From Eubacteriales bacterium (GTDB lineage Bacteria; Bacillota; Clostridia; Oscillospirales; SIG627): 64,000 bases of DNA. The translations under genes were made by a program, and so were the position numbers. The stretch lies in contig JAZODR010000021.1 in NCBI GenBank assembly GCA_045597125.1, positions 22,062-86,061 on the forward strand, read 5' to 3'. Below, piece after piece: positions 28,702-53,834 of the stretch; the first letter of the stretch is position 1, and the number at the start of each line of letters is the position of its first letter. The notes beneath the pieces were generated by a model. The model was given only the letters and a program-made list of their open reading frames with translations. It was not told the origin of the DNA and searched no databases.

Positions 28702-28713
28702 GGAAGGTTTTTT

Positions 28714-31679: not shown

Positions 31680-31709
31680 AGGGCTGAAAAACAGCCCTTT
31701 ATTTTTTTT
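31678..31709 (+). terminator. Rho-independent terminator after the yitT-like gene
   Basis: AAAGGGCTG-AAAAA-CAGCCCTTT followed by ATTTTTTTT. Confidence 0.8.
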
Positions 31710-31772
31710 GTCATTGCGTGTCAGTACTCTTTTCGTGTATCATCCGCTCAACGAAACAAACAAGGAGGCACT

Positions 31773-33350
31773 ATGAAGCAAACAGAAACGAAATTTCTCA
31801 CAGAGGATTTCAAACTTTTGGAAAAGGGCAGGGAATATAACCGAACCATTGCCCTGTACGATACAGTCAACCGCAATGAACGCTTTTATCGCGGCGACCA
31901 ATGGCACGGCGTAGAAAAGGGGGATCTGCCTACACCGGTATTCAACCTGTTTAAGCGTGTTATCAACTATTTCGTTTCCACGATTATGAGCCAGAAAATG
32001 TCGGTTCATTTTGCGGCGGAGGGAATGGAAATCTTTCACGATAAAGAAAAGCGAATCCGTATTGAGGAGGCTTGCAGACTTCTGACCCGTTATGCCAATT
32101 ATCGCTTTGATCGTGATAAGTTGGATGATCTCTTAACGCGAGGTCTTTTGGATGCTGCGGTGACGGGAGATATGTTTCTTTATGTGTATTGGGACCATGA
32201 GAAAAAGACAGCGCAGGGCTTTAAGGGAGATTTTGTAACGACCCTTGTGGATAGTACTCAAGTCTTTTTCGGGGATGTAAACACTCCTGAGGTGGAGGCA
32301 CAGCCTTATATTCTTTTGACGGGTAGGGAACTGGTTTCCAAACTGCGTCAAGAGGCATTGGAAAATGGAGCCACTGAGGAAGAAGTGGCAAAGATTGTTT
32401 CTGATCGTGATACCGAAAGCCAAAGCGGAGATTACGGAAAAATGGAGCTGGCGGATACAAAGGCAAGCTATGTAATTTGTATGTATAAAAAGGATGGCAC
32501 TGTTCGATTCCGCAAAAGCTGCAAAGAGCTTGTGATCGTGCCGGAACGCGATACGGGTTTAAGCCTTTATCCTGTGGTTTTATTAAATTGGGAGCGTGTA
32601 AAAAATTCCTACCATGGTCAGGCGGCTGCAACCAATTTGGTGGATAACCAGCTTTACATTAACAAAGCCTTTGCTATGGTGATGAAGCATATGATGGATG
32701 TTTCTTTTTCAAAGGTAATTTATAACGCAAATATTATCGATGAATGGACGGGTGAGATTGGTGAGGCGATAGCGGTAAACGGGCCTGTGGAACATGCCGC
32801 TGATCGTCTGGATCCCGGCAGTTTACAGGCAGGTTTTCTGGACATTATTCGAATGACTATGACCGTTACCAAGGAACTGATGGGAGCCACCGATGCGGCG
32901 CTGGGAAATGTTACGCCCGACAATACCAGTGCAATTATTGCTCTGCAGCAAAGCTCCGCCGTACCGCTGGAACTGCAGAAAAGGGCGCTCTATACGGCGG
33001 TAGAGCGTCTGGGTATGATTTGGCTGGATTTTATTCTGGGCTTTTACGACGAATCTCGTATTATGCTTTTCCGAGAGAAGGGAGAACTTCTGGGCGGAAC
33101 CATTTCATCGCGGGAGATGAAGAATATTCTCTTCTCTTGTACCACACAGGCAGGCGCTTCCAGTCATTGGAGTGAAATTGCTCAGATTTCTACCTTGGAC
33201 CGTCTTCTTACCTCGGGTAATATTCGATTCTCACAGTATTTGGAGCGTATTCCCGACGGTTATATTTCGAAGCGTGAGGAACTTTTGGAAGAAGTAAAAC
33301 AAGAAGAAGACGTGCTTGCTACCCAATCTGATTTTCCGGCAAACGCCTGA
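31773..33350 (+). CDS. Phage portal-like protein
   Basis: 525 aa. N-terminal NRNERFYRGDQWHG...LPTPVFNLFKRVINYFVS resembles the portal N-terminal motif. It sits directly upstream of scaffold-like and capsid-like genes. AAGGAGG SD. Confidence 0.65.
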   Translation: MKQTETKFLTEDFKLLEKGREYNRTIALYDTVNRNERFYRGDQWHGVEKGDLPTPVFNLFKRVINYFVSTIMSQKMSVHFAAEGMEIFHDKEKRIRIEEACRLLTRYANYRFDRDKLDDLLTRGLLDAAVTGDMFLYVYWDHEKKTAQGFKGDFVTTLVDSTQVFFGDVNTPEVEAQPYILLTGRELVSKLRQEALENGATEEEVAKIVSDRDTESQSGDYGKMELADTKASYVICMYKKDGTVRFRKSCKELVIVPERDTGLSLYPVVLLNWERVKNSYHGQAAATNLVDNQLYINKAFAMVMKHMMDVSFSKVIYNANIIDEWTGEIGEAIAVNGPVEHAADRLDPGSLQAGFLDIIRMTMTVTKELMGATDAALGNVTPDNTSAIIALQQSSAVPLELQKRALYTAVERLGMIWLDFILGFYDESRIMLFREKGELLGGTISSREMKNILFSCTTQAGASSHWSEIAQISTLDRLLTSGNIRFSQYLERIPDGYISKREELLEEVKQEEDVLATQSDFPANA

Positions 33351-33379
33351 AAATAAATGAATAAAAAAAGGAGGACATT

Positions 33380-33793
33380 ATGAAGAAGAAAAAGGAAAAA
33401 GAAGTACCTGTAGAACAGATGCTTCCCGCCCAAACTCCTGAATCCGAGGAAGCAGGAGTTTCTGCTGAGGACTGGATGGAGGAGGATATTGAACTCTTTC
33501 GCAGTTTATTTCCCGAGGTAAAGGGAGAGGACATCCCTCAGGAGGTATGGGACCGCGTAGAGCACGGCGAAAGTCTTGCGGCAAGCTATGCGCTCTATGC
33601 TGTACAGCAGTACCGAGAAGAGGAAAGAGTCAGCCGTATCAATGAGGAAAACGGCAAAAAGGCACCGCCTCCCATCGAAGGAAGCTCTGCCGAAGGCGAC
33701 TACTTTTCTCCGGAAGCGGTGAAGAGTATGAGCCGTAGCGAAATTCGCAAAAACTACAACAAAATTTTATCTTCCATGGAAAAATGGAACTAA
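33380..33793 (+). CDS. Phage scaffolding-like protein (acidic, helical)
   Basis: 137 aa and very acidic (EQMLPAQTPESEEAGVSAEDWMEEDIELF), placed between the portal and capsid genes. AGGAGG SD. Confidence 0.45.
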   Translation: MKKKKEKEVPVEQMLPAQTPESEEAGVSAEDWMEEDIELFRSLFPEVKGEDIPQEVWDRVEHGESLAASYALYAVQQYREEERVSRINEENGKKAPPPIEGSSAEGDYFSPEAVKSMSRSEIRKNYNKILSSMEKWN

Positions 33794-33813
33794 AAAAGAA
33801 AGGATGAAACATT

Positions 33814-34650
33814 ATGGCAATTCAAAATTTTATTCCCACACTTTGGAGTGAAACTCTTTATACGGAGCTGGAAAAGGACTATGTGGGTGTCCGACTTTGC
33901 TCCCGTGACTTTGAAGGAGAAATCCGTGGAGAGGGTGACCGCGTTAAAATTTGCGGCGTAGGACCCGTAACCGTATTCGACTACCACAAAAACCAGGATA
34001 TGCCTGCCGCAGAGGTGCTTTCCGATACGGAGAGAACCTTGGTTATCGATCAGGCAAAAGGCTTTAACTTCTTTCTGGATTCTATTGATCTTGCTCAGTC
34101 TAAAAAGGGCTTGATGCAGGCGGCAATGAAGGAGGCATCCGGTGCTCTTTCCGACGTGGCGGATCGCTACATTTACTCTTTGACCGATGAGAACGTAGCA
34201 GAGCTTGAGAATAGCGCAGCTACCAGCACCAACATTATCAGCACGATTGCAGAGGCAAGAAAAATGCTGATGGAAAACAATGTGCCCAATTCTGCCAAGG
34301 TATCTTTGGAGGTTTCCCCTGCCATCGAGCAGAAGCTGGTGCTTGCCAAGGTTCTTCGTTCTACCGACAACGTAGAGGCACTGGGCAGAGGATACATTGG
34401 CTCCTTTATGGGCTTTGATATTTATGTAACTAACAATATTACCCCTAATGATGACGGTTCTTATCGTTGTATTGCCAGAACCGGAAGAGCGATTGCCTTT
34501 GCCGAGCAGGTATCTGCGGTAAAAGCCTACGAGCCTGAGCTTCGTCACGGTGACGCAGTAAAGGGTCTGCATCTGTACGGTGCTAAGATTATTTACCCCA
34601 AGGAAATGGTATTTTTGAACCTGACTCCTGGGGAAGAAGAAATGATCTGA
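33814..34650 (+). CDS. Phage major capsid-like protein
   Basis: MAIQNFIPTLWSETLYTELEKDYVGV...RDFEGEIRGEGDRVKI matches the N-terminal pattern (FIPEIWS...Y-x-G-x-I...GDTVKI) that I recall from P22-coat-like capsid proteins of Firmicute phages. The position after the scaffold gene agrees. Confidence 0.65.
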   Translation: MAIQNFIPTLWSETLYTELEKDYVGVRLCSRDFEGEIRGEGDRVKICGVGPVTVFDYHKNQDMPAAEVLSDTERTLVIDQAKGFNFFLDSIDLAQSKKGLMQAAMKEASGALSDVADRYIYSLTDENVAELENSAATSTNIISTIAEARKMLMENNVPNSAKVSLEVSPAIEQKLVLAKVLRSTDNVEALGRGYIGSFMGFDIYVTNNITPNDDGSYRCIARTGRAIAFAEQVSAVKAYEPELRHGDAVKGLHLYGAKIIYPKEMVFLNLTPGEEEMI

Positions 34651-34681
34651 TTATTTTTGCATCAGGAAAGGGAGGAAGGAT

Positions 34682-35065
34682 ATGAAATGTGCTGAAGATA
34701 TCTATCATAGAAGTCTTGCTCTCATGGGAGAAACACCGGGGGAAGAAAATCAGATTTTCAAGGAACGGGCAGTGCCTATTATCAATGTACTCCTGTCACA
34801 GCTTTTTGAACTGGAAATTGCGCTTAGGGGAGAGAAGTATTCCGTAGAAACGGTCATTCCGCAAATTACTTCTCTGAAGGATGTTCTTTCCTTATGTGAT
34901 CCGATTCTTTACACGGTAATTCCTTTGGGACTTGCGGGTTTTCTCCTGATGGAAGAAGAAATGGAGCGAGGAAGATTTTTCCTCCAGTTGTATCATACTG
35001 AGGTGGAGCTTTTGCAAGCCAGAAGTTTACGCGGTGTCCGTCATAAAATTACAAGGAGCGTGTAA
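34682..35065 (+). CDS. Hypothetical protein (position suggests a head-completion/adaptor role)
   Basis: 127 aa with GGGAGGAAGG SD. No family recognised; the role is inferred from position only. Confidence 0.35.
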   Translation: MKCAEDIYHRSLALMGETPGEENQIFKERAVPIINVLLSQLFELEIALRGEKYSVETVIPQITSLKDVLSLCDPILYTVIPLGLAGFLLMEEEMERGRFFLQLYHTEVELLQARSLRGVRHKITRSV

Positions 35066-35068
35066 GGT

Positions 35069-36772
35069 ATGGCAAAGGATTTTACGTTGCGTGTGGAGGA
35101 GTTTGCGGGGATGAGATTGTCCGCGGACAATACCGATGAGCTTTCTGTGGGCAACGGTGCGGATATGGTCAATTTCCGTATTACCCAGGCAAAAAAACTA
35201 AAACGTCGAGAAGGTTATTCTCGGGTATTTAATGCTCCTTCTAATTTGAGAGGAATTTTTTGCGGTAGTGTAGGAGGTGTGACGCACTATCTGGCTGCCT
35301 GTGGAAATCGACTTTACACTTCCACCGAGGGGTTTGACCGTCTTGAGCCTTTGGAAACAGAATTGGGCGGAGAGGATCGCGTGTTCTTTTTTCCTTTTCA
35401 CTCTAAGCTTTATCTGCTTACAGGGGAGAATATTTACCACTATGACGGTGCTACCTTATCTATTATTGAGCCGTACATTCCACTGATTATGATTTGTACC
35501 CCGCCCCAAGGAAGCGGAATCGTATATGAGGATGTCAATCTTTTGACTCGCAGGGTGCGCCAAAGATTTTCTCCTGACGGATACAAAACCATTTTCCCCG
35601 CTGCGGTAGAAAACGTGGATGCCATTGACTGGGTCAAGATCAATGGATTCATACAGCGAGAAGATAGCTATTATTTCGATTATGATAATAGTTCCTTTGA
35701 ATTTGTGGGTGCTCCAAGAATGGGAACAGATACCGTGGAGATTCAGTACGTAATCGCTAAGGAGGATGTATCGGACCGTATTAAAAAATGCTGTTTTGCT
35801 ACGGCATTTGGTGGGGCGAATGATACACGAGCTTTTTTGTACGGTAATCCCGATAGTCCTGCGGTGCGCTATCATAGCGGTATCGTAGATGGAAAACCTT
35901 CCTTTACCTATTTCCCCGAAACAGCCTTTTCCCTGGTGGGAACGGGCGATCCCATCACTGCCATTTGTCGCCATTATGACCGACAGTTGATTTTTACTGC
36001 GGGCAGTGCCTATTATTCTTATTTGGAATATATGACAGGGTCGGAGGGAAGGCTGATTGCAGGCTTTCCTATCCTTCCTTTGAACGAAGAGAGAGGCTGT
36101 GTTGCTCCCGGTCAGGCAATTTTGGTGAAAAACACTCCTTATACTCTTGCCGAGGACGGTTTATTTCAATGGATTTCAACCAATATCCGCGATGAGCGAA
36201 ACGCAGAATGTATGTCCGAACCCATCAATCACGCCTTGCAAAAAGAAGTGCTATCAAGCGCGATTTTGTTCAATCGCAAGGAGCAATCGGAATTGTACTT
36301 ATGCGTAGGAGAAAATTGTTATGTGTACAATTATCGGTTGAAGCTGTTTTATCGGTACAGAGTACCTCGTATTCTCGGATTCTGTCGGGGAGAACAACTG
36401 TATTTTTATACAGAGGACGGAATTTTTTCTCTTGGCGGCAATACGGATGACGGGCAAAAAATCAAGGCGGTATGGAAGTCTAAGCTTTTGGATTTTTCTG
36501 ATAAGCAAAGGATAAAGAAATTATTTGGAACTACGCTCATTGCCAAGGGTGGACTTGGAAGTGAACTTCTGCTTTCCTTTCGAGAGGAAAATGAAACGGA
36601 AAAAATTACAAAGCGGGTACATTTTTCCGGAAATCCCGAAGGAGAAAGGATTCACCTGGATACGCCCAAAAGGCGATTTGGGGCATTGGAGATTAGCCTT
36701 GAAACCGATAGTGAGGAAAGCGTACATATTTTGGCGCTACTTCTAAAGGGGAGAATTACAGATGCAAAATAG
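35069..36772 (+). CDS. Hypothetical large protein in the phage-like module (possible virion/tail-hub component)
   Basis: 567 aa and rich in short aromatic beta-strand-like repeats (LYLLTGENIYHYDG, LYLCVGENCYVYNY, LYFYTEDGIFSLGG) that suggest a repeated beta fold. No family recognised. Confidence 0.35.
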   Translation: MAKDFTLRVEEFAGMRLSADNTDELSVGNGADMVNFRITQAKKLKRREGYSRVFNAPSNLRGIFCGSVGGVTHYLAACGNRLYTSTEGFDRLEPLETELGGEDRVFFFPFHSKLYLLTGENIYHYDGATLSIIEPYIPLIMICTPPQGSGIVYEDVNLLTRRVRQRFSPDGYKTIFPAAVENVDAIDWVKINGFIQREDSYYFDYDNSSFEFVGAPRMGTDTVEIQYVIAKEDVSDRIKKCCFATAFGGANDTRAFLYGNPDSPAVRYHSGIVDGKPSFTYFPETAFSLVGTGDPITAICRHYDRQLIFTAGSAYYSYLEYMTGSEGRLIAGFPILPLNEERGCVAPGQAILVKNTPYTLAEDGLFQWISTNIRDERNAECMSEPINHALQKEVLSSAILFNRKEQSELYLCVGENCYVYNYRLKLFYRYRVPRILGFCRGEQLYFYTEDGIFSLGGNTDDGQKIKAVWKSKLLDFSDKQRIKKLFGTTLIAKGGLGSELLLSFREENETEKITKRVHFSGNPEGERIHLDTPKRRFGALEISLETDSEESVHILALLLKGRITDAK

Positions 36773-36786
36773 GAAAGGAGAAAGGA

Positions 36787-37521
36787 ATGTCACAGACAGA
36801 TACTATGAAGCAGTATTTGCGACGTCTGGAAGACGAGTCTGCGGCGATTCGCTCACGGTATGCAAGTCTTGCTGCCGCAAGCGATGCGCAGTATCGGGCA
36901 AAAATTGAAAAGCTGGATATGGATTATGCTGCAGCGGTAAATGAAGCTTCTGCTCAATCTCAGATTAATTTGAAAAACAATCTGGAGAAAATGGCGGATG
37001 CGGGCTATACACGCTCCGGCGAAACGGTGCAGGCAACTATTGCAGCAGGTTCCGATCGGGCAAAGATGCTGTCTGCTTTGTCATCGCAGAGGGCTCAGGA
37101 TAAGAAGAGCTATGAAAGCGAAATGGCCCGAGCCCGAGAGGGCATTGTTCTGGAGGGAGAAAAGGAGGCGGCGGAATATGAAAACCGTGCTACGGAAATG
37201 ATTCTTGCCCAGCAGAACGCAGATCGGGAATTTGAGGCAACCCAGCGCCAGAGAGCCGTTGAGAATGAATTGAAACAGCGTTCTTTGGCTCAGGAGAAGA
37301 AAAATGAAGAGAAAGGAATCGTTCCCGAAAAAAATCCCTACGAATATGTGGAGCAAATTGTAAAACAAAACAGTCAGTACAACAAGAAGAAAGGGTACAC
37401 GGTGGTGGATCGCAAGGCAATTTTGCTGGCGATTTCTTCCGTGGTGAAGGACAAGCGTCTGTCTTATCAGTACCGTTATGAAATGTATTTGTACGGAAAA
37501 AGTTTGGGATATATTCAATAA
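36787..37521 (+). CDS. Hypothetical coiled-coil protein in the phage-like module
   Basis: 244 aa, A/E/Q/R-rich with heptad-like stretches. GGAAAGGAG SD. No family recognised. Confidence 0.35.
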   Translation: MSQTDTMKQYLRRLEDESAAIRSRYASLAAASDAQYRAKIEKLDMDYAAAVNEASAQSQINLKNNLEKMADAGYTRSGETVQATIAAGSDRAKMLSALSSQRAQDKKSYESEMARAREGIVLEGEKEAAEYENRATEMILAQQNADREFEATQRQRAVENELKQRSLAQEKKNEEKGIVPEKNPYEYVEQIVKQNSQYNKKKGYTVVDRKAILLAISSVVKDKRLSYQYRYEMYLYGKSLGYIQ

Positions 37522-37547
37522 AAAAAGAGCCGAAAGGCTCTTTTTTT
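37522..37547. terminator. Bidirectional terminator between the phage-like module and dpaB
   Basis: AAAAAAGAGCC-GAAA-GGCTCTTTTTTT. The T-run overlaps the dpaB stop codon. Confidence 0.8.
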
Positions 37548-38112
37548 ATTGAAAGATGGGTTGAAGCGATTTTCCGTTTAGCGCCGCTTCGATGGCATCG
37601 GGGATAAGATCAAAATTGCATACCAGGGAGGCGGGTTTTTCGGAAGGCGCATCTTGCCTCATGGGAACAAAGAAAATGCTTTTTTTATCGGCAAGCACGC
37701 CCAGACTTTTGGCAGAACCGGATAGGGCATCGTTGGTGGAGAGGGCAATGAGAATTTTTCCGCCACCGCGACGATGGGATTTTGCCGCCATTGTGACGCA
37801 TGTATCCGTAATCCCCAGGGCCATTTTGGAGAGCGTATTGCCCGTGCAGGGACAAATGACCAAAAGGTCCAGCATATGCTTCGGACCTAGGGGTTCCACC
37901 TCGGTCAGCGTTTGCAGGGGTATTTGTCCGCAGATGTTCTCCAATCGGGAAAGAACCTCTTGTGTTTTAAAAAAGCGGGTGTTGGTATTTGCAACCCGTT
38001 CCGAAATGATGGGAATCAGATGATATTGCTCCTTTAAGGCTTCCATAATCCGAAAGGTTTTTTCCAGTGAGCAGAAGGAGCCTGTCAGGGCAAAGCCTAC
38101 GGTTTTTTTCAT
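37546..38112 (-). CDS. dpaB: Dipicolinate synthase subunit B (flavoprotein family)
   Basis: GFALTGSFCSLEK...ICPCTGNTLSKMALGITDT...IALSTNDALS is SpoVFB-like. It is coupled to the dpaA-like gene by a 4-nt overlap. Confidence 0.8.
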   Translation of the reverse strand: MKKTVGFALTGSFCSLEKTFRIMEALKEQYHLIPIISERVANTNTRFFKTQEVLSRLENICGQIPLQTLTEVEPLGPKHMLDLLVICPCTGNTLSKMALGITDTCVTMAAKSHRRGGGKILIALSTNDALSGSAKSLGVLADKKSIFFVPMRQDAPSEKPASLVCNFDLIPDAIEAALNGKSLQPIFQ

Positions 38113-38885
38113 AATATACTCCTTTTGATAGATAGGGTGCGCGTTATCTCATACCAGATGGCATCGGCTTCCGATGCGGGGCAGTATTTTCCGGGAAGAC
38201 CGTGGAGGGGGAAAAAACGGATACCACGCTGTTCCAAAGCATTTGTATCAATGCCTGAAAATCCACTTGCTATTTGGAAAAACGAACTGTCATGTCGCAT
38301 GGTGGAAAGAAATTGAGTTGAAAAGATGGAATCGGGCACGGTATTGATGATTCCGTCGAACATTCCCAGTCCCTTGACGGGCGCAGGGTACACATTAAAG
38401 CCATCTGATTGTGCAAGGGCCTGTCCTCGTTCTCTTGACCAAACCCATACTTCACACCCGCAAAGCCACAAAAGACGTGCAATGGCGCGTCCGCAATTTC
38501 CGTAGCCGTAAATGAGAAAGCAAAGTTCGTCCAGCTTTCGGTGGGTATTTGTAATGATTTCCGCCAAAGTGCCTTCGGCGGTATGTTCTGCATTTTTTAA
38601 AAGGTATCGTTTCTTTTCTAAAAGGTAAGTCAAATGGATGTTCTTTTGCCCTGCATCCTCTTTCACATCGTTTGTGCTTTTCCCAAAAAAGACAAAGCTT
38701 CCTGATGGAATTTTGCCAAGGGCATCGAGGCACGCTTTTTCGTCGAGGTTGAAAGGGAAGAGGAAAACACCCGGCTCCGATGGGGTGTTTTCATTGTATT
38801 GTAAAACTTGAAAACCCGCCTCCTCGGCTATGGCGGAAAGGTGTGTGAAGCGAAGGTCGTTTGTTTTTGGCAGAATGAATTTCAT
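38109..38885 (-). CDS. dpaA: Dipicolinate synthase subunit A
   Basis: Rossmann motif IYGYGNCGRAIARLL, size and pairing with dpaB. ATG 38885 has GAAGGAGG upstream; the track GTG at 38909 is less likely. Confidence 0.7.
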   Translation of the reverse strand: MKFILPKTNDLRFTHLSAIAEEAGFQVLQYNENTPSEPGVFLFPFNLDEKACLDALGKIPSGSFVFFGKSTNDVKEDAGQKNIHLTYLLEKKRYLLKNAEHTAEGTLAEIITNTHRKLDELCFLIYGYGNCGRAIARLLWLCGCEVWVWSRERGQALAQSDGFNVYPAPVKGLGMFDGIINTVPDSIFSTQFLSTMRHDSSFFQIASGFSGIDTNALEQRGIRFFPLHGLPGKYCPASEADAIWYEITRTLSIKRSIL

Positions 38886-39029
38886 TACAGTTCCTCCTTC
38901 TGAATCCACACTTTATTTTATGCAAAGTATATATCTTTGCTACGGTTTTTTGGTGAAAATGTATCTTTTGTTTTATAGTTATATTTGGTATAATGAATTC
39001 GGAAAGAGTAAAATTATAAGGAGAATTTT

Positions 39030-40508
39030 ATGAAACGAATTTTATTTTTGTGTTTAGCGCTTGTGATGATGCTGACAAACCTTGCATCTTGCGCATCTTC
39101 CTTGTTGGCTCCGGAGACCGCCGCTGAAGAGCAGAATGTTAGCTCTGACAAGGAAACGGCCAATGAAAAACGCGATCCTACCGGTTTTTCCGCAGGTTTC
39201 GGTCGTGCTGTTATTAACCCTAAAAATCCTGTTGGCATGGCTGGCTATGGCAATGATAAAACTCGTCTATCTACAGCCGTCGGAAACGACTTGACTGTAT
39301 CCTGCATCGCTGTTTCTGATGGGGAGAATACCGCTTTGTTTTTCACTATTGATGTGCTTTCCATTGGTTATAAAAATCTTGAGAATATTCAAAAGCAGGT
39401 TGAGAAAAACTTGGGTATTAAGCCGGAATTCGTTATCGTTTCCGCAACTCATGCTCATTCTGCGCCTGCCATTGCCAATAGTGCGAATGAGTCTGTTGCA
39501 AATTATTTGAGACTGTTTTATCCTGCGGTTATCAAGGCGGCAAAGGATGCCGTGGCAGACCTTGACCGTTGCGAAATCAAGGTTGGATGTACTACTACTA
39601 CCGATCTTAGCTATGTGCGTCGCGTTTTCCGCGAGGATGGAACTTTTTACGGAACTAACTATGTTTCTACTAGCACCTCTCCCGTTGTTCGCTATGAAAC
39701 CGAGATAGATAATGAAATGCAGCTTTTGATGTTTGATCGTGTGAATGGCAAAGATATTCTGATGATGAATTGGCAGTGCCATGTAACCACTGCAGGCGGT
39801 CGCAATAACACCATTCTTTCTTCTGACTGGGTAGGCGTACTTCGCGAGAAAATAGAGAAGGAAGGTAATATACACTTTGCTTATTATCAGGGAGCTGCGG
39901 GCAATATTGTTTCCAATAGTTATATTACATCCGCTCCCAGAAATGATGATTACAACATTTATGGAAAGAAGATTGCTGATGTTGCTTTGGCGGCAATTCC
40001 TAAGATGGAAAAGGTTTTTTCCGGCAAAGTGAGCGCTACGAGCAAGATTGTCTCTTGCGAAAAGGATTTGGATATTTCTATGTATGATTTGGAGAAGGCG
40101 AAGTTGATTGCAGAACCTTATCGAGCAGGTGATTATGAAAAGGCAAAGTCTCTTTGTCTGGATTATGGATTCAATTCTCCTTATCACGCAAATGCGGTTG
40201 TAACCAAGAGTGAGAGTACGGAAACAGCATCGACGATGCCGCTTTCTGCTGTTTCTATCGGTGATGTAGGGTTTGCCGTTGCTCCTTATGAAATGTTTGA
40301 TACCAACGGACAGCAGATTAAGACAAATTCTCCTTACAAGATGACCTTTGTTTGCGCTTATTCTAATGGTGCGTATGGATATATTCCTTCTGAAATTGCT
40401 TGGCCTAACGGCGGTTATGAGGTAGATACATGTAAATATGTTAAGGGAACGGGCGAGATGTTGGCAAATGAATTGGTTTCGTTGCTTGGAGAAATAAAAA
40501 TAGATTAG
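39030..40508 (+). CDS. Neutral/alkaline ceramidase-like lipoprotein (function uncertain)
   Basis: MKRILFLCLALVMMLTNLASCASS is a lipobox signal. AGFGRAVINPKNPVGMAGYG...LTVSCIAVSD...FFTIDV...VSATHAHSAP resembles the ceramidase N-terminal domain pattern. Confidence 0.5.
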   Translation: MKRILFLCLALVMMLTNLASCASSLLAPETAAEEQNVSSDKETANEKRDPTGFSAGFGRAVINPKNPVGMAGYGNDKTRLSTAVGNDLTVSCIAVSDGENTALFFTIDVLSIGYKNLENIQKQVEKNLGIKPEFVIVSATHAHSAPAIANSANESVANYLRLFYPAVIKAAKDAVADLDRCEIKVGCTTTTDLSYVRRVFREDGTFYGTNYVSTSTSPVVRYETEIDNEMQLLMFDRVNGKDILMMNWQCHVTTAGGRNNTILSSDWVGVLREKIEKEGNIHFAYYQGAAGNIVSNSYITSAPRNDDYNIYGKKIADVALAAIPKMEKVFSGKVSATSKIVSCEKDLDISMYDLEKAKLIAEPYRAGDYEKAKSLCLDYGFNSPYHANAVVTKSESTETASTMPLSAVSIGDVGFAVAPYEMFDTNGQQIKTNSPYKMTFVCAYSNGAYGYIPSEIAWPNGGYEVDTCKYVKGTGEMLANELVSLLGEIKID

Positions 40509-40517
40509 GAATACGTT

Positions 40518-40555
40518 AAAAGTCCCCTTTATGCTTTAGCATAAAGGGGACTTTT
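40518..40555. terminator. Bidirectional terminator
   Basis: AAAAGTCCCCTTTATGC-TTTA-GCATAAAGGGGACTTTT. Confidence 0.8.
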
Positions 40556-40559
40556 GATT

Positions 40560-41291
40560 TTATCTTTCAATTCCAAGGTCTTCTAAAGTCAAAGAGGAAT
40601 AGTCCTCTTCCTCTTCTGTTTGTGGGGGAGTGGGTTCATTTTTTGCTTCCTTAATGGGAATCATACGAAGTCCTAAGGAGAGTGTGTAGAAGAAATAATA
40701 AAGGAAAGGGGAAATGGCGAAAAATGAATAACGAAAATAAGAGGTATGACCCATAGGAAGTAGTTGGGAAAAGTAGAAAAAGGAGTATTTTTCTTGGAAC
40801 AGCGCTGACAAAATCAGAAGCAAAATTTCAATTCCCAAATAAGAAAAAATCATAAGGGGAGCGATTTTTTTTGCGTCGGGTAAAAAAGCGGCAAAGGCGG
40901 AAAACACACCGATGAAAAGAATTCCCAGCATCGTTACAATTAAGGTGCCGTGGGTTTTTTCGTCCAGAAAAGAGGGGATGCGGAGTATGGCGTACAGGGT
41001 CATAGGCAGACAAGAAAGAAGTATTCCGATTCGCTCTTTATTTTGACAGAAGAAAACGGAAGCGCAAAGCAGAAAAAAGGGAGAAGCCATCCAAATGCAG
41101 TCTGCCACGGTACTCAAAAGACCGCTGTTTACTCCGATGGGAATTTCCCAACCATATTCGAAGCCCTTGGCATCGGAGTGCCAGGCCAGCGTGAAAAAGG
41201 TGAAAAAAAGCATCCCTGCAGAGAAGACTGCGGAAAGGGAAAGGAGGATTCGGCGGAGTGAGCTCATAGAAGTCTCCTTATGGTTTTTCAA
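40560..41291 (-). CDS. Polytopic membrane protein, unknown function
   Basis: About 6 hydrophobic spans and an acidic C-terminus (PQTEEEEDYSSLTLEDLGIER). No family recognised. The start may be the internal ATG at 41270. Confidence 0.45.
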   Translation of the reverse strand: MKNHKETSMSSLRRILLSLSAVFSAGMLFFTFFTLAWHSDAKGFEYGWEIPIGVNSGLLSTVADCIWMASPFFLLCASVFFCQNKERIGILLSCLPMTLYAILRIPSFLDEKTHGTLIVTMLGILFIGVFSAFAAFLPDAKKIAPLMIFSYLGIEILLLILSALFQEKYSFFYFSQLLPMGHTSYFRYSFFAISPFLYYFFYTLSLGLRMIPIKEAKNEPTPPQTEEEEDYSSLTLEDLGIER

Positions 41292-41350
41292 GTATCATAA
41301 CACAAACCAGGCGTTTTAGCAAGATGATTTGAAACAAAAGCGAAATGTCA

Positions 41351-41380
41351 TTGTGCGTCACGGCTGGTGTAATATATAAT
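41351..41380 (+). promoter_or_regulatory. Possible sigma-A-type promoter upstream of the small terminase-like gene
   Basis: TTGTGC, 18-nt spacer, TATAAT (41375-41380). Confidence 0.35.
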
Positions 41381-41408
41381 ATGGCAAAATAAAAAAGGAG
41401 AAAACACC

Positions 41409-41798
41409 GTGAAAAGATTGACCGAAGATATGGCAAGACAGCGAATCTGCGCCTATTTTGCCTCTCGCAGGGTGGAAAAGCGGGATTCGGATGGTAATGT
41501 GCTTGTGAATAAATGCGGGGAGGTGCTTTACGATGAAAAGCCTTGTACCGTTACGGGCCTTTCCCTTGCTCTGGGGTTTTCCCAAAGGGAAGAGCTTTTT
41601 GAAGTAAAAAATAAAAAAGTAAAAGTGCTCGTTGACCGAGCACTTTTGAAAATTGAAGAATATGCAGAGGAAAAGTTATTTTGTAAGGATACCTTCCACG
41701 GAGCAAAGCTTTTTCTGGAGGCCAACTATAAACGCTGGCAAGGAGAAGAAACCGAAGAGGTTGCAGGTCTTGGAGTTTGCTCTCAGTGGGCGGAGTAA
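41409..41798 (+). CDS. Phage terminase small subunit-like protein
   Basis: KPCTVTGLSLALGFSQREEL...ALLKIEEYAEEKLF...GAKLFLEANYKRWQGE follows the terS pattern (P-x-T-x-x-GLALALGxS ... AE..L ... G.IF.LKN..GW). GTG start with AAGGAG upstream. Confidence 0.7.
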   Translation: MKRLTEDMARQRICAYFASRRVEKRDSDGNVLVNKCGEVLYDEKPCTVTGLSLALGFSQREELFEVKNKKVKVLVDRALLKIEEYAEEKLFCKDTFHGAKLFLEANYKRWQGEETEEVAGLGVCSQWAE

Positions 41799-42407
41799 TC
41801 AAGGCTCGCGAATCAGATAAAAGGCGCCTTCGTGGATTTGGATGACGGTGCGTTTGGTTCCCTCGTTGCTGATGCCTAAGGTCAAAGACGGGGGAAGAGT
41901 CGCTTGTTCCAAGGGGTATTTTGCACCTGTTACCGAAATGATCCCCGTTCCGCTAAAGTCGAAAAGAGAAAAATAACCATCTGTAAAATTAAAGGTATGA
42001 ATACCGCGCGTCAGGTAATATACCAGGTAATGCTCGTCTATTAGTATTCCCTCGGCATTGTTTTCTGCCAGAAAGGCAAGGACTTGTAGATTTGCCAAGG
42101 AGTGGGAGAAGCGCTTTCCGCCCAAAGCGCCGTAAATGCGAAAATGTCGATATCCGCGGATAAGTCCTTCGCGAAGTGCTGCATGAATATCCGTATCGTC
42201 TTTGACAGGGGGGAGAACCACGGCTTGGATTCCCTCGGGGTTGTAGCCCAGAGAATCGCCGTCGCCGATGTAAAGATGGGGGCGGATGTTTGCTTTCGCA
42301 AGATGCTCATAGCCTGCGTCAGCAGCAATGAGAAAATCACTTGGGGCAAGGTGCAAAAGACTCTCGGAGAAATCTCCCGCGCCTACAACGTGGCAAATCT
42401 TTGGCAT
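41799..42407 (-). CDS. thiN: Thiamine pyrophosphokinase
   Basis: FLIAADAGYEHL, YIGDGDSLG, KDDTDIHAAL and RIYGALGGKRFSHSLANLQ are TPK motifs. It lies downstream of thiT behind a TPP riboswitch. Confidence 0.8.
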   Translation of the reverse strand: MPKICHVVGAGDFSESLLHLAPSDFLIAADAGYEHLAKANIRPHLYIGDGDSLGYNPEGIQAVVLPPVKDDTDIHAALREGLIRGYRHFRIYGALGGKRFSHSLANLQVLAFLAENNAEGILIDEHYLVYYLTRGIHTFNFTDGYFSLFDFSGTGIISVTGAKYPLEQATLPPSLTLGISNEGTKRTVIQIHEGAFYLIREP

Positions 42408-42410
42408 AGT

Positions 42411-43058
42411 CTATCCTTTCTTGATAGTGGGGATTTTTGCAAGGCAGAATCCTGAAAATGCGGTAATAAGAATTTCGGGCAGCATATAAAGCCCGTTATA
42501 AATGACGGAATAGCAAATGGCAAGACCTGCGCCGCTGAAGGTCTTCATAACCCAAGCGGAGATGGCAAGGTCTTTTGCCGCGCTTTCCGTAAAGAACCAT
42601 TCTGCCCAAGCGCCGTAAAAGATGGCGCCGGAAATTACGTGGAACAGGTAGCAAAGGGAAAGACCGAGAATGCTACCCCATAGAATTGCCCATTTTTTGG
42701 AGAGACGGTTGCGAAAAACACCTGCAAGGCCTACGGAGGTGAAGGCAAGTACATAGTCCAGAAGCAAAATGAGAATGGCGAAGCCTGCGCCCATATAGGA
42801 ATCGGATGTGGGTATAAACAGGGCGGAAACAGTCTTAAAGCCTACTGCCATTTGCATCAGAGCATACACGAAGGCGCTTCCCAGACCCCAGCTGATGCCG
42901 TACATCCAGGAGATGAGTACCAAAGGCAAAAGACTTGCCAGGGTAATGGTTCCTCCAAAGGGGAGATTGAGAAAGGGAATCCATTCGGATACGAAGGAAA
43001 TTGCGGTACCCAAGGCAATGAGCATTGCCGAGGTAACCAGTTTTTGGGTTTTGTTCAT
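42411..43058 (-). CDS. thiT: Thiamine transporter ThiT (ECF S-component)
   Basis: About 6 TM segments, N-terminal KLVTSAMLIALGTAISFV, and a position directly behind a TPP riboswitch. AAGGAG SD. Confidence 0.7.
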   Translation of the reverse strand: MNKTQKLVTSAMLIALGTAISFVSEWIPFLNLPFGGTITLASLLPLVLISWMYGISWGLGSAFVYALMQMAVGFKTVSALFIPTSDSYMGAGFAILILLLDYVLAFTSVGLAGVFRNRLSKKWAILWGSILGLSLCYLFHVISGAIFYGAWAEWFFTESAAKDLAISAWVMKTFSGAGLAICYSVIYNGLYMLPEILITAFSGFCLAKIPTIKKG

Positions 43059-43067
43059 AACAAACTC

Positions 43068-43107
43068 CTTAAATAAAAATTCGCACAGGACGGAAGTCCC
43101 GTGCGAA
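43068..43107 (-). terminator. Riboswitch expression-platform terminator
   Basis: On the minus strand: TTCGCACGGGA-CTTCCG-TCCTGTGCGAA (one G-U pair) followed by TTTTTATTT. It sits between the TPP aptamer and the thiT SD. Confidence 0.7.
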
Positions 43108-43125
43108 CGCGAATTTGGTTCTCAT

Positions 43126-43214
43126 AAAAACTCCCTACGCCGGTATTATCCATCTCAGGTTAAAGGGTTTGCGGTTATCCGCATCTCAGCCGTTGATACA
43201 GCACCCCTGTTTTT
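43126..43214 (-). promoter_or_regulatory. TPP (THI-box) riboswitch
   Basis: The minus strand reads AAAAAC-AGGGGTGC..GGCTGAGA..ACCCTTTAACCTGAGATGGATAATACCGGCGTAGGGA-GTTTTT. This carries the conserved GGGGUGC, CUGAGA, ACCUGA-x-x-GGAUAAUACC-x-GCGUAGGGA elements and a closing P1. Confidence 0.9.
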
Positions 43215-43234
43215 CCGCTCATGTGCGTGGCATT

Positions 43235-43263
43235 ATTCTAGTCTTTTTTTCACGGTTTGTCAA
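43235..43263 (-). promoter_or_regulatory. Sigma-A-type promoter of the thiT-thiN riboswitch operon
   Basis: On the minus strand: TTGACA, 17-nt spacer, TAGAAT. The -35 element lies 7 nt from the terL-like ATG on the other strand. Confidence 0.6.
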
Positions 43264-43270
43264 GAGAAAA

Positions 43271-44638
43271 ATGAATGCAACAGAAAAATTATTATCTTCC
43301 CTTCACCCTTTTCCGCCCCAAGAGGAGTTTTTCCGTGCCAAGGCGCGGAGGATTGCTTACGGCGGAGCAAGAGGAGGCGGGAAAAGCTTTGCTATGCGTG
43401 CAAAGCTGGTTTTACTTGCCCTGCGCTATTCGGGAATCCAAATTTTGCTTTTGCGCAGAAGCTTTCCCGAGCTTCGGGAAAATCATATCAATCCCTTACG
43501 CCGATGGCTCCACGGTATTGCCCATTTTCGCGAATCTACCAAGGAGTTTATTTTCCCCTCAGGCTCTCGCATCAAATTGGGGTATTTGGCTGAAGAAGCC
43601 GACGCTTTGCAGTATCAGGGACAAGCTTACGAAGTTATCGGAATGGAGGAGGCGACTCAATTTACCGAGAGTCAGTATTATGCCATGACTGAGTGTTGCC
43701 GACTTTCGGGAGCGATGCGGGAGAAATTCGTCCCGCGTATGTATTTTACAATGAATCCGGGTGGGGTGGGACACGCTTGGGTGAAAAGGCTTTTTATCGA
43801 TCGGGATTATCGCGAGGGCGAGTGTGCCGAGGATTACGTGTTTATCCCCTCTACCGTTTATGATAACCGTTATTTGCTTCAGGAGAATCCCGAGTATGTG
43901 CGCAATTTGGAGAGTCTTCCTCCTTTGCGGAGAAAGGCGATGCTGGAGGGGGATTGGGATGCCTTTGAGGGGCAATATTTTACCGAATTTGACCGAAGCC
44001 GTCACGAAATCGAGCCCTTTGAGATTCCAAAAACTTGGCATCGTTTTGCGGCAATGGACTATGGTCTGGATATGACCTGTTGTCTGTGGTTTGCCTATCC
44101 GCCCGACAGAAGCCGCCTTGTGGTTTATCGGGAACTTCATGAGCCCGATTTGGTGCTGTCCGAAGCGGCCGGAAAAATTGCAGAAATGACGGGAGGAGAG
44201 ACTTTGCGCTATATTGCAGCTTCTCCTGACCTTGCCGGAAGACGGCAGGACGTGGGGAAAACAGGTTTTGATATTATGGCTGCCGGTGGATTGAAAGGTC
44301 TTATTCCCGCGGAGAACAGCCGTATTCCCGGTTGGCGTCGGGTACGGGAATTTTTACGGGCGAATGGGGAGAAGGGAGCCTATTTCGGCATTTTTTCTCC
44401 TTGCCGTAATCTTCTTCGCACCTTGCCGCGGCTGACCTTTGACCCCGTGCATACCGAGGATACCGCTTTGACGCCTCACGAAATTACTCATGCGCCTGAT
44501 GCCTTGCGCTACGGACTTGCCTCTTTGTCTTTTTTGCCCGGAGAAAAACAGGAAACCAAGGAGCGGATTCGAGATTTGCGTACAGAATTTTTTGGAAAAA
44601 AAGGCAGTGACCCTTACTTTGATTTTTTGAAAAAGTAA
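43271..44638 (+). CDS. Phage terminase large subunit-like protein
   Basis: AYGGARGGGKSFAMRAKL (Walker A), VIGMEEATQF (Walker B-like), and C-terminal RNaseH-like acidic positions (AAMDYGLD, IAASPDLAG, HAPDALRY). ATG 43271 is the only start upstream of the Walker A that does not run into the riboswitch. The SD is poor. Confidence 0.75.
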   Translation: MNATEKLLSSLHPFPPQEEFFRAKARRIAYGGARGGGKSFAMRAKLVLLALRYSGIQILLLRRSFPELRENHINPLRRWLHGIAHFRESTKEFIFPSGSRIKLGYLAEEADALQYQGQAYEVIGMEEATQFTESQYYAMTECCRLSGAMREKFVPRMYFTMNPGGVGHAWVKRLFIDRDYREGECAEDYVFIPSTVYDNRYLLQENPEYVRNLESLPPLRRKAMLEGDWDAFEGQYFTEFDRSRHEIEPFEIPKTWHRFAAMDYGLDMTCCLWFAYPPDRSRLVVYRELHEPDLVLSEAAGKIAEMTGGETLRYIAASPDLAGRRQDVGKTGFDIMAAGGLKGLIPAENSRIPGWRRVREFLRANGEKGAYFGIFSPCRNLLRTLPRLTFDPVHTEDTALTPHEITHAPDALRYGLASLSFLPGEKQETKERIRDLRTEFFGKKGSDPYFDFLKK

Positions 44639-44683: not shown

Positions 44684-45487
44684 ATGTTAAAACCGTTTTT
44701 CAATCAGGAAAAAATTGAATATTTTGCTGCTCTTTCTCCCAAAGACATTATTCTTTGGGACCGTGAAAAATTTGACCGTTTGGAAGCACAGATGGGGAAA
44801 ATTAAAAGTGTGGTGGTCTTTCTTATTCCCTACAATGCGGGGCAAAAAACCACCAATTTGTCCGTTTACGCCCAGGTGAAGGATTATCATCTGTATCTGC
44901 GAGAACTTTCCGCGCGGTTGGATGTTTTTTTGAAAGAGAAAGGGATTCAAGTTGCTTTTCGAGGCTTTGCGGATTCTTCTCCCTTGGCTGAACGGGAAAC
45001 TGCCCTTGCGGCAGGGCTTGGCGTGATGGGGGAAAATGGACTTCTGATTCATCCTAAGTACGGCTCCTTCTTTTTTATCGGTGCTTTCTTTTTTACGGAA
45101 TGTCTGCTGCCGAATGGAACGAAGGAAGAGGCGGAAAAGTGTCTTTCCTGCGGTGCTTGTAAAAAGGCTTGTCCCACGGGTGCGATTTTGGATTCTAAGA
45201 GGGAAATGTGTCTGTCACTGATTTCTCAGAAGAAAAATCGAACTGCTGAGGAGGATGCATTGCTTGCAAAGGCGGATTGTAAATGGGGCTGTGATCTTTG
45301 CCAGAATGTTTGCCCGATGAATCAAAACGCGGCTTTAACCCCAATTCCTTTTTTTCAAAATGATCATATAACCCATCTTACTCTTGATACGGCAGAATTA
45401 CCGAAAGGGGAATTTCTTTCCCGCGCTTTTTCTTGGCGGGGCAGAGAACTGATTCGTAAAAATTTGAAGAAAACATATACGGAGTAA
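44684..45487 (+). CDS. Epoxyqueuosine reductase (QueG)-like 4Fe-4S protein
   Basis: GFADSSPLAERETALAAGLGVMGENGLLIHPKYGSFFFIG plus two ferredoxin motifs, CLSCGACKKACPTGAI and CDLCQNVCPMN. It is shorter than the canonical QueG I recall. Confidence 0.6.
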   Translation: MLKPFFNQEKIEYFAALSPKDIILWDREKFDRLEAQMGKIKSVVVFLIPYNAGQKTTNLSVYAQVKDYHLYLRELSARLDVFLKEKGIQVAFRGFADSSPLAERETALAAGLGVMGENGLLIHPKYGSFFFIGAFFFTECLLPNGTKEEAEKCLSCGACKKACPTGAILDSKREMCLSLISQKKNRTAEEDALLAKADCKWGCDLCQNVCPMNQNAALTPIPFFQNDHITHLTLDTAELPKGEFLSRAFSWRGRELIRKNLKKTYTE

Positions 45488-45518
45488 ATTTTTTACTCCG
45501 TATATGTTGATTTTTTTT
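45473..45518 (+). terminator. Rho-independent terminator
   Basis: ACATATACGGAGTAAA-TTT-TTTACTCCGTATATGT followed by TGATTTTTTTT. The stem includes the stop codon. Confidence 0.75.
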
Positions 45519-51351: not shown

Positions 51352-51359
51352 TAATGTGT

Positions 51360-51524
51360 GATAGAGGTGCACTTAATCAAAAGTAATTTCCTTATTATGT
51401 GAGTTGCCGAAGCTTGGGAAATGAAAGGGATGGGTGCCGAAGCGGCTTCCGATCGGACGGGGAGTTTGCTGGCAGCTGAGAATAAGATCTCTTCTGTTGT
51501 CGCAGTTATGCGGAGTGCTATCTG
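51360..51524 (+). promoter_or_regulatory. Lysine riboswitch (L-box)
   Basis: GATAGAGGTGC...GTTGCCGAAG...GAAAGGGATGGGTGCCGAAG...CTGG...GGAGTGCTATC. These are the conserved L-box elements, with P1 formed by GATAGAGG.../...GTGCTATC. It lies upstream of the dapA-lysC-lysA genes. Confidence 0.85.
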
Positions 51525-53823: not shown

Positions 53824-53834
53824 TAAGGATTTTT

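Follow-up and report, generated by a model that had tools for sequence, protein, structure and literature searches.

Why should intact phage head and packaging genes lie in separate pieces between ordinary genes of a gut bacterium? The question was raised by a stretch of 64,000 nt from an Eubacteriales bacterium (assembly GCA_045597125.1, contig JAZODR010000021.1, positions 22,062 to 86,061), which we call the window in its whole length. A first-pass annotation had reported eight plus-strand open reading frames (ORFs) of phage type in it, and we found all eight at the coordinates listed below. Six of them form a head block (31773-37521) and two encode a small (TerS) and a large (TerL) terminase (41409-44638); together the structural and packaging genes span 12.9 kb. 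From the identities of the genes, a promoter box that the pieces share, conservation and synteny in relatives, and the selection acting on the genes, we conclude that they probably make up a chromosomally fixed, multi-locus putative gene transfer agent (GTA; a viriform) derived from a P22-like podovirus and carried by an uncultured Oscillospiraceae/Clostridia lineage of animal guts. Stretches fetched from relatives bear locus labels (L001 and so on), and identities and ratios of nonsynonymous to synonymous substitution (dN/dS) are given relative to the window's copies.

Head and terminase genes

The head block consists of the following genes.

31773-33350 (+): portal protein, P22-type, 525 aa (PF16510 P22_portal 2e-14; phrog_156 1.7e-28)
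33380-33793 (+): acidic scaffold-like protein, 137 aa, with a basic C-terminal helix
33814-34650 (+): major capsid protein, 278 aa, HK97-fold family PF25209/P22-coat-like (PF25209 3.8e-11; phrog_267 4e-39)
34682-35065 (+): g127, helical protein, 127 aa, putative head-to-tail adaptor at the position of P22 gp4
35069-36772 (+): g567, 567 aa, tail nozzle/hub of the P22 gp10/T7 gp12 class by structure model
36787-37521 (+): g244, coiled-coil protein with a conserved C-terminal domain, 244 aa, at the position of P22 gp26 (needle/plug)

Profile matches to PF16510, PF25209 and Terminase_3 bore out the portal-like, capsid-like and large-terminase-like calls of the first-pass annotation. Portal homologues were present in 74 fetched loci, and the capsid protein had 2078 homologues, mostly of 272-286 aa among the 120 listed. 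The scaffold-like protein also had homologues in 74 loci, mostly encoded directly upstream of the capsid gene. Its sole family match in Pfam and PHROG was phrog_14606 at 7e-4, and searches of Pfam, PHROG and NCBIfam gave no Prp or peptidase match; from its position and acidic composition we infer a scaffolding role.

The gene set had been described as tail-less, a label that g567 contradicts. An AlphaFold (AF2) model of this protein, built on 36 homologues, had a mean predicted local distance difference test (pLDDT) score of 91.8. When the model was compared with the PDB by Foldseek, it matched the Pa223 tail (3.5e-20) and P22 gp10 (8eap_D; 7.9e-16, template modelling (TM) score 0.71), as well as the nozzles of Sf6, SU10 and T7 (gp12). 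Matches in BFVD carry the name 'P22 Gp10, DNA-stabilising', and a profile search assigned the protein to phrog_3287, a virion structural protein, at 3e-15. By its predicted structure, g567 is a podovirus tail nozzle of the P22 gp10-type.

The two remaining proteins of the block were assessed by position. In 35 loci the g127 gene was conserved in its place after the capsid gene and before that of the nozzle; neither the window protein nor 19 homologues matched a Pfam, PHROG or NCBIfam family, and a single-sequence AF2 model reached a pLDDT of 57, so poor that Foldseek matches obtained with it are meaningless. Homologues of g244 follow the nozzle gene in 22 loci, and in one species (L019, 11263-13752) nozzle and g244 homologue are fused into one 829-aa ORF, which supports a physical association of the two proteins. 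By position, g127 is the probable adaptor, and for g244 we infer the role of needle or plug.

The terminase genes enclose a host operon that runs on the opposite strand and is controlled by a thiamine pyrophosphate (TPP) riboswitch.

41409-41798 (+): small terminase-like protein TerS, 129 aa, GTG start (GP3_package 1.7e-5; phrog_606 2.8e-5)
41621-41647 (-): intrinsic terminator of the thiT-thiN operon (11-bp stem, then a T-run), within the gene for TerS
41799-42407 (-): thiN, thiamine diphosphokinase (TIGR01378, above cut-off)
42411-43058 (-): thiT, part of the host insert between TerS and TerL
43115-43218 (-): TPP riboswitch (71.7 bits)
43263-43235 (-): thiT promoter, read as TTGACA-17-TAGAAT
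43271-44638 (+): large terminase TerL, 455 aa (Terminase_3 7.7e-13; phrog_979 4e-46; TIGR01547 4.7e-16)

TerL had 6310 homologues, uniformly of 445-461 aa, which supports the ATG at 43271 as its start. Its Walker A motif (YGGARGGGKS) and the residues E127, D263/D267, D320, D397 and H403/H407 were invariant among 17 sequences of 44-84% identity, in agreement with the intact Walker A and nuclease-type acidic residues noted earlier. The small-terminase call stood in part: TerS aligned with proteins encoded directly upstream of TerL in the contiguous clusters of relatives, whereas its family matches were weak and the score against GP3_package, the P22 gp3 family, falls below the Pfam cut-off.

TerS is closely interlocked with the thi operon. 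TerS and the convergent thiN meet stop codon to stop codon, and the KNKK(V/I)K codons of TerS give the T-run of the thi terminator on the opposite strand; L081 and L082 have a comparable hairpin and T-run within TerS. In 4/4 genomes (window, L081, L082, L085) TerS adjoins the 3' end of the antisense insert or overlaps it. TerL has a weak Shine-Dalgarno sequence, and 8 nt separate its ATG from the -35 hexamer of thiT's divergent promoter. The upstream sequence examined held neither the box described below nor a recognisable promoter for TerL; a conserved sequence there was considered as a TerL promoter and rejected, being explained instead by the divergent thiT promoter and leader. No plus-strand terminator was found between TerS and TerL in the window. 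The most economical interpretation is that TerS and TerL still belong to a single transcription unit, which would read antisense through thiN-thiT. The TerL stop (44638) abuts the start of an ORF for a QueG-like 4Fe-4S protein (44639), and queG also follows TerL in L081 and L082; since the next plus-strand terminator lies only at 45472-45508, TerL and the QueG-like gene may be co-transcribed. The earlier view that each block is bounded by terminators and promoters was therefore not sustained: no plus-strand terminator follows g244 or TerS, and TerL lacks a promoter and runs directly into the QueG-like ORF.

Between the head block and TerS lies a first host spacer.

37546-41291: dpaB (-), dpaA-like gene (-), ceramidase-like gene (+), gene for a 243-aa multi-pass membrane protein (-)

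The dpaB product matched NF006161 with 219 bits, above cut-off. The genes that separate the phage-type pieces are thus cellular, as first described: dpaB, the dpaA-like gene, the ceramidase-like gene, the membrane protein gene, thiN and thiT with the TPP riboswitch. We found no integrase, repressor, replication gene, tape measure, fibre or lysin among the large ORFs scanned, which cover most, not all, of the window, and to that extent the absence of such genes reported by the first-pass annotation holds. The other large ORFs scanned were housekeeping genes or had no family match.

A promoter box shared by the head block and TerS

The box TGTCATTGnnTGKCAG, followed after 13 nt by a -10 hexamer of the form TAnnnT, precedes both the head block and TerS.

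31709-31743 (+): head-block promoter, with box TGTCATTGCGTGTCAG at 31709-31724, a 13-nt spacer and the -10 hexamer TATCAT at 31738-31743
41346-41380 (+): TerS promoter, with box TGTCATTGTGCGTCAC at 41346-41361, a 13-nt spacer and the -10 hexamer TATAAT at 41375-41380

The exact pattern TGTCATTGNNNGKCA occurred twice in the window against 0.00 expected from 100 shuffles. We then represented the box by a 16-nt position weight matrix (PWM) and scanned 1.46 Mb (the window plus 87 loci, both strands) at a threshold of at least 17 bits. The head-block box scored 28.7 bits, the maximal value, and the TerS box 21.3 bits. The scan returned 41 matches, 39 of which were located at head-block or TerS promoters, and at least 11 of these 39 were outside the set on which the matrix had been trained. 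In L001-L034 and L046 the box stood at the corresponding place before the head block, in L081, L082 and L085 it preceded TerS, and its spacing to the -10 hexamer was fixed across loci; it was absent from the compact gene clusters examined. In the window, the yitT terminator (31674-31704) precedes the head-block promoter. In L025 and L027-L035 the approximately 250 nt between box promoter and portal appear to hold the last part of a small, conserved coding sequence, whose product has the C-terminus ...WQ(N/S)II(S/G)YDHK and no counterpart in the window. The box itself was absent from the first-pass annotation, as were the thi terminator inside TerS and the precedent of FpGTA, the GTA of Faecalibacterium prausnitzii.

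The box reads as a direct repeat, TGTCA-N5-TGTCA, that straddles a -35 hexamer TTGnnT, and its geometry is that of a putative activator site; we take it to resemble the boxes of response regulators. The adjacency of the head block to dpaBA, which had been offered as a hint of a link to sporulation, was limited to the closest relatives, and the box promoter is presumably unlike the promoters of sporulation sigma factors; we found nothing in support of such a link and rejected it. The LysR-family protein encoded near the head block is a possible but so far unsupported candidate for the regulator: its gene adjoins the head block in 10 genomes, but more remote loci with the box lack it, and no box precedes lysR itself.

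A metagenome-wide scan for the box with its -10 hexamer gave 107 matches, mostly chance-looking, of which three were informative. One (L110) precedes a head block 92-98% identical to that of the window, and another (L184) lies in a lysR-yitT-box-portal junction. The third, in L089, is a promoter that matches the window's portal promoter at 33 of 35 nt and drives three genes: one for a holin (phrog_608, 1.2e-9), one for a membrane/coiled-coil protein of 134 aa, and one whose product is tail-fibre-like and has collagen-like repeats. This locus is flanked by host phosphatase genes; its holin had no relatives in IMG/VR, and its proteins had no homologues in the fetched loci or the window. The arrangement suggests that lysis and fibre functions are encoded elsewhere under control of the same box, comparable to operon II of FpGTA. 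Scanning IMG/VR for the box gave two matches, which we took as chance.

In the mechanism that we propose, a trans-acting factor, either an activator or an alternative sigma factor, would act at the box overlapping the -35 region and would switch on together the head block (portal, scaffold, capsid, g127, nozzle, g244) and TerS; in relatives, it would also switch on a holin/fibre-like locus elsewhere in the genome. TerL would most likely be reached by read-through from the TerS promoter, antisense across thiN-thiT. Small procapsids would be loaded by TerS and TerL with DNA taken at random and closed by adaptor, nozzle and plug; the holin would release the particles, which would transfer their DNA. 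Having no integration or replication functions, such an element could not mobilise itself and would be inherited only vertically.

Relatives, selection and descent

Capsid relatives were collected by a pattern-limited scan with one genome per GTDB species, and were present in at least 240 species-level genomes. The best 80 of these 240 (L001-L080) were all uncultured metagenome-assembled genomes (MAGs) from gut or rumen, labelled Oscillospiraceae, Clostridia, Eubacteriales, Ruminococcus sp., Lachnospiraceae or Christensenellaceae. Three layouts could be told apart by capsid identity. At 73-97% identity the order is that of the window, portal-scaffold-capsid-g127-nozzle-g244, with no TerL within 10 kb; at 61-67% it is portal-g127-nozzle-scaffold-capsid...g244, again with no TerL nearby. 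At 50-58% TerL is directly upstream, the order being TerL-portal-scaffold-capsid-nozzle or TerL-nozzle-portal-scaffold-capsid. Compact clusters of approximately 8.5-9.2 kb (L277, L278, L086) hold TerS-TerL-portal-scaffold-capsid-small protein(s)-nozzle-343 aa(-holin). They are flanked by core host genes (lepA/hemN; hydrogenase/SpoIIE; FBP aldolase and CarD), and we found no integrase and no replication genes in those examined.

The interleaving with host genes recurs across species, both for the terminase genes (L081, L082, L085) and for the head-block flanks in nine species, so that the synteny for which the first-pass annotation had proposed a test is present and the arrangement is not a chance juxtaposition. 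The order TerS(+)-thiN(-)-thiT(-)-TerL(+)-queG(+) is found in L081 and L082, where TerL is 82-84% identical, and L085 has TerS-thiT(-)-TerL, with TerL 68% identical, between purine-biosynthesis genes and uvrC. A TerL homologue of 63% identity belongs to an isolated TerS-TerL pair with no portal nearby. The upstream neighbours of the head block, two trigger-factor-like paralogs and lysR with or without yitT, are common to 9 further species; downstream, dpaB-dpaA-ceramidase also follows in the two closest relatives, L001 and L002, and the genes of the first host spacer lie upstream of TerS in L082. Head block and terminase block are approximately 87 kb apart on one contig of GCA_017517325.1 (L008 and L081) and on different contigs in GCA_045536965.1 (L021 and L085).

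We also compared the family with viral collections. In IMG/VR, capsids at least 43% identical occurred only on 4-10 kb contigs with the same gene set, and contigs of phage-genome size (30-46 kb) held distant relatives only (capsid 30-40%, portal 27-33%, nozzle 23-32%). The nearest record in a phage database was MT836592.1 (L087), followed by siphoviruses at 38-40% identity. This scaffold has the order TerS-TerL-portal-scaffold-capsid-small-small-nozzle, a GC content of 59% and a capsid 41% identical to that of the window; it may represent a GTA cluster of some high-GC gut Firmicute that was packaged, or else misclassified. It was deposited as 'Bacteriophage sp.'.

To assess selection we calculated dN/dS by the Nei-Gojobori method against the closest species, among them L001-L003 for the portal and L082 for TerS, at dS of at least 0.8 and mostly about 1 or more. 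The ratios were 0.02 for the capsid, 0.03-0.05 for the portal, 0.06-0.12 for the nozzle, 0.07-0.11 for g244, 0.09-0.18 for g127, 0.13-0.16 for the scaffold and 0.11 for TerS. Portal and capsid were thus well below 1; the first-pass annotation had named values near 1 as the mark of a prophage remnant. The particle genes had ratios equal to or below those of the neighbouring host genes lysR, dpaB and thiT, and the genes were full-length ORFs in about 35-81 relatives' loci and intact, all eight, in the window. Counted by species-level genomes, intact copies were present in about 80. Portal divergence tracked lysR divergence (Spearman 0.65, 45 pairs). The combination of vertical inheritance and selection that is asked of a GTA was therefore found, with a caveat for capsid and nozzle, and some exchange of alleles between lineages is likely.

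Several further features were noted around the head block and in the rest of the window. Three tandem paralogs with a trigger-factor C-terminal domain occupy 26375-29787, the first of which also has an FKBP peptidyl-prolyl isomerase domain; in relatives, two of the three are conserved directly ahead of lysR and the head block. The LysR-family regulator (29816-30691, minus strand) had CidR as its best NCBIfam match, at 164 bits, far below the 415-bit cut-off. CidR is the activator of the holin-like cidABC operon, and lysR is divergent and beside the head-block promoter in several relatives. A lysine riboswitch (51354-51528, plus strand, 86 bits) lies ahead of a dapA-aspartokinase-lysA operon (51434-55130); the listed GTG start at 51434 falls inside it, and the true dapA start should therefore be further downstream. 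Two long ORFs overlap on opposite strands, 19951-21705 (+) and 19981-21756 (-), of 584 aa and 591 aa, respectively, and the 584-aa product had no Pfam, PHROG or NCBIfam match. A 144-aa ORF (16478-16912, minus strand) gave a match to a Mutator-like transposase at 2.2e-4, weak and below cut-off, and may be a transposase fragment.

Known systems and competing explanations

The closest functional precedent is FpGTA, whose particles of approximately 40 nm have no visible tail and carry about 8.5-9 kb of DNA (Borodovich et al., Nat Commun 2026, PMC12946183). Its operon I of 10.5 kb encodes TerS, TerL, portal, a Prp-like protein, a capsid of the N4-gp56 family, a nozzle matching 8eap and an abundant protein annotated "TolA", and a fibre/lysis operon of 5.5 kb lies 125 kb away (PMC12946183). 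The same study reported GTA-type packaging of host fragments of 4.6-8.9 kb in gut Ruminococcaceae, Oscillospiraceae and Christensenellaceae, with no FpGTA homologues in Gemmiger or Subdoligranulum and other packaging taxa without an identified cluster. A preprint of July 2026 described similar candidate clusters in mouse gut MAGs, noted their likeness to capsid-forming satellites and left GTA versus satellite undecided. We found no literature description of the present gene family or of the box.

Like FpGTA, the window family has a host among gut Clostridia of the Oscillospirales type and a podovirus-like set (TerS-TerL-portal-X-capsid-small proteins-nozzle-coiled-coil) of approximately 9-10 kb, with no integrase or replication gene and a nozzle that matches the same PDB entry, 8eap (RCH50846 in FpGTA). 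The fibre/lysis genes of FpGTA are at a separate locus, as are those driven by the box in L089. The two nevertheless differ. The FpGTA capsid (RCH50849.1) is annotated N4-gp56, whereas the window capsid (E <= 0.1) and five relatives (E <= 0.01) missed that NCBIfam model, FpGTA having been compared by annotation only. A Prp-like cysteine protease gene stands between portal and capsid in FpGTA, in the place of the acidic scaffold-like protein of the window. Operon I is contiguous, whereas in the window TerS, TerL and head block are three pieces parted by host genes, and FpGTA particles have been observed, whereas the window family is known from genes alone. It appears from these gene comparisons to be a separate lineage of similar architecture.

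GTAs of the RcGTA type resemble the window family in vertical inheritance, purifying selection, a multi-locus organisation in which fibre and lysis genes are kept away from those for head and packaging, a lack of integration and replication functions, and a dedicated promoter. RcGTA is regulated in a host-integrated way through such a promoter and the activator GafA. It is siphovirus-like (HK97-type, with tape measure and tail tube), whereas the window family is P22-like and short-tailed, and its TerS and TerL are adjacent in the main cluster, whereas those of the window are parted by thiN-thiT. Since the hosts belong to different phyla, the two would be of independent origin.

The likeness to P22 is one of gene order and family. 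The late operon of P22 runs 3-2-1-8-5-4-10-26, and the contiguous relatives L277, L278 and L086 match it with TerS-TerL-portal-scaffold-capsid-g127-nozzle-g244, adaptor and needle being assigned by position. The T7-type order proposed earlier for the window is thereby replaced: the contiguous relatives show the P22 order TerS-TerL-portal-scaffold-capsid-small-nozzle and the Pfam matches (portal, coat and gp3) are P22-type, as is the fold of the nozzle. The window's terminase genes lie downstream because they have been separated from the head block. On the other hand, the 278-aa window capsid is without the P22 I-domain, the ejection proteins, tailspike, lysogeny and replication genes of P22 are missing among the ORFs scanned, the window genes are chromosomal and dispersed, and identity to P22 proteins is very low (approximately 10% for the nozzle).

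PBSX and PBSZ of Bacillus are likewise phage-derived and chromosomally fixed in a Firmicute host, the particles of the window family being only predicted, and the TIGR01547 match of TerL is a sub-threshold match to the PBSX terminase family. PBSX is a contiguous, myovirus-like element of approximately 28 kb with a contractile tail and lysis genes, whose particles package host DNA and act as a bacteriocin; the window has no PBSX-like tail or lysis genes among the ORFs scanned, and no contiguity.

Kogay et al. 2022 (PMC9662315) recognise viriforms by particle genes derived from tailed phages and by a lack of functions for integration, excision and replication, besides vertical transmission under selection, packaging of part of their own genome at best, and delivery of largely random host DNA to recipients after induction in a subpopulation. 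Read from the genes, the first are represented by portal, capsid, TerS-like protein, TerL and nozzle; the second were missing among the scanned window ORFs and around the relatives, with the exception of a serine recombinase in L083. A functional or recently inactivated prophage is a poor description, since the phage genes are split by conserved host operons and no integrase, replication or lysis module occurred among the ORFs scanned.

If the genes specify a domesticated particle, its role could still be another one, such as altruistic lysis and DNA release, a defence decoy or a killing particle, with DNA packaging a mere requirement of assembly. The sequence data are silent on function after release, a holin is linked in relatives, no recognisable receptor-binding protein is encoded in the window, and Caulobacter GTAs are reported to promote stationary-phase survival and DNA repair (PMC9632790). 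We nevertheless regard such a role as unlikely. TerS and TerL have been retained with invariant ATPase and nuclease motifs, the adaptor-like, nozzle and plug-like proteins point to a particle that is filled with DNA and delivers it, and FpGTA carries host DNA.

The genes could also belong to a selfish mini-element, a capsid-forming satellite or minimal phage-like unit that packages itself and depends on a helper or on recombination, with the window copy as its disrupted, hitch-hiking descendant. In length (8.5-9.2 kb) the compact relatives come close to the 8.4-8.9 kb that FpGTA-type capsids package, an entire cluster is present on a 9.6-kb virome scaffold, clusters of this type are classed as viral in IMG/VR, the preprint saw a resemblance to capsid-forming satellites, and capsid alleles appear to have been exchanged between lineages. 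Capsid-forming phage-inducible chromosomal islands (cf-PICIs) are similar to the compact clusters in having a small cluster with its own terminase, portal, scaffold and capsid, and small capsids, made or predicted. But cf-PICIs carry integrase, regulatory and replication modules and borrow the tails of a helper, whereas none of these modules was found in the window family, whose genes are non-contiguous and include a nozzle. The clusters examined held no integrase, excisionase, replication or helper-interference gene, and encode their own nozzle, so that some tail parts are present. Core host genes adjoin them, and the neighbours of the head block are common to several species. In the window clade the genes are split over distances from 12.9 kb to more than 87 kb and yet are under strong selection with a common promoter, which would be unexpected for a unit that packages itself. 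In this split clade the gene set is likely too large or dispersed to be packaged whole; a capacity of 8-9 kb would apply only if the particle is FpGTA-like. We consider a selfish mini-element to be improbable.

That the genes are a decaying prophage remnant, surviving by chance with no present function, is highly improbable and largely refuted: a phage origin, the lack of fibre, lysis, integrase and replication genes among the window ORFs scanned and the host genes that rearrangement would be expected to interleave are all in its favour, but the eight ORFs are intact here and in 35-81 relatives with dN/dS of 0.02-0.18 at saturating dS, position and interleaving are the same in several species, the box is conserved across species and loci, and the catalytic residues of TerL are invariant. 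Between the two origins that the first-pass annotation had offered, an unusually eroded prophage or a domesticated, GTA-like system, the intact ORFs, purifying selection and conserved position clearly favour the second.

Several observations weigh against a fixed, multi-locus GTA. The holin/fibre locus L089 is a metagenome contig that is not assignable to the genome of the window, and the window itself contains no recognisable receptor-binding or lysis gene among the ORFs scanned. The box is also present on approximately 10 short phage-like contigs of one metagenome (JAEIGA01), and it could be a phage-derived or general regulatory site that is not specific to a GTA. The TerS assignment draws on weak matches and position; for g127 a PDB profile search was empty, with no detectable homology to an adaptor, and g244 had no match in Pfam, PHROG, NCBIfam or a PDB profile search, with no detectable homology to a needle. 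The divergence of capsid and nozzle is not tracked by that of lysR (Spearman -0.01 and 0.07), so that strict vertical descent fails for some genes. A 445-aa serine recombinase with Resolvase, Recombinase and Zn_ribbon domains is encoded immediately downstream of the isolated TerS-TerL pair (L083/L084, 11549-12886). The human faecal virome scaffold MT836592.1, of 9,588 bp, holds a whole compact cluster, and compact clusters of 8.5-9 kb may package themselves. Finally, the hosts are uncultured and the system is known from genes alone.

Two of these loci deserve a further description. The pair linked to the serine recombinase belongs to a Ruminococcaceae MAG lineage and was seen on 23 contigs. 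On the JAEIGA01 contigs with the box (L119, L121, L125, L131, L133, L138, L142, L158, L159, L183), the box is directed at a convergent gene, into its 3' end or terminator, and then toward a conserved ORF of 50-84 aa (MTIKELKxII...). By eye, ORFs of L183 are like SSB, MT-A70 methylase and excisionase, and a mobile element of that community may use the box.

If a multi-locus GTA is accepted, the scattering itself might be functional: the particle genes would form a host regulon through the TGTCA-N5-TGTCA box, TerL, obtainable solely through antisense read-through of the thiT-thiN operon from the TerS promoter, would be gated by thiamine status, and the family would be the missing basis of GTA-type packaging in those gut Ruminococcaceae, Oscillospiraceae and Christensenellaceae that are without FpGTA. 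We put this forward as a speculation that is doubtful at present. Were thiamine gating true, cells starved of thiamine, in which the thi operon is strongly transcribed, would block TerL by transcriptional interference, and induction of the particle genes would silence thiamine uptake.

GTA-type packaging was reported in 2026 to be common among gut Ruminococcaceae and Oscillospiraceae. FpGTA is the single gene set tied so far to GTA packaging in gut Clostridia, and the window family is a candidate for other taxa: it is widespread (at least 240 species-level genomes), strongly conserved and of a capsid lineage unlike that of FpGTA. Its compact and dispersed forms make up a natural series that begins with a phage-like cluster and ends with a multi-locus system fully integrated into the host. 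Relative to the known gut GTA, the derived dispersal of the genes, the clade-wide box and the terminase operon bisected by a riboswitch-controlled host operon are new features, and in TerS/thi/TerL a viral operon and such a host operon are intertwined to an unusual degree. The box offers a handle for finding the remaining loci (lysis, fibres, regulator) in genomes of the clade and a bait for the regulator. GTAs of gut Clostridia were first described in 2026, and the window family adds a widespread further lineage with a putative particle function.

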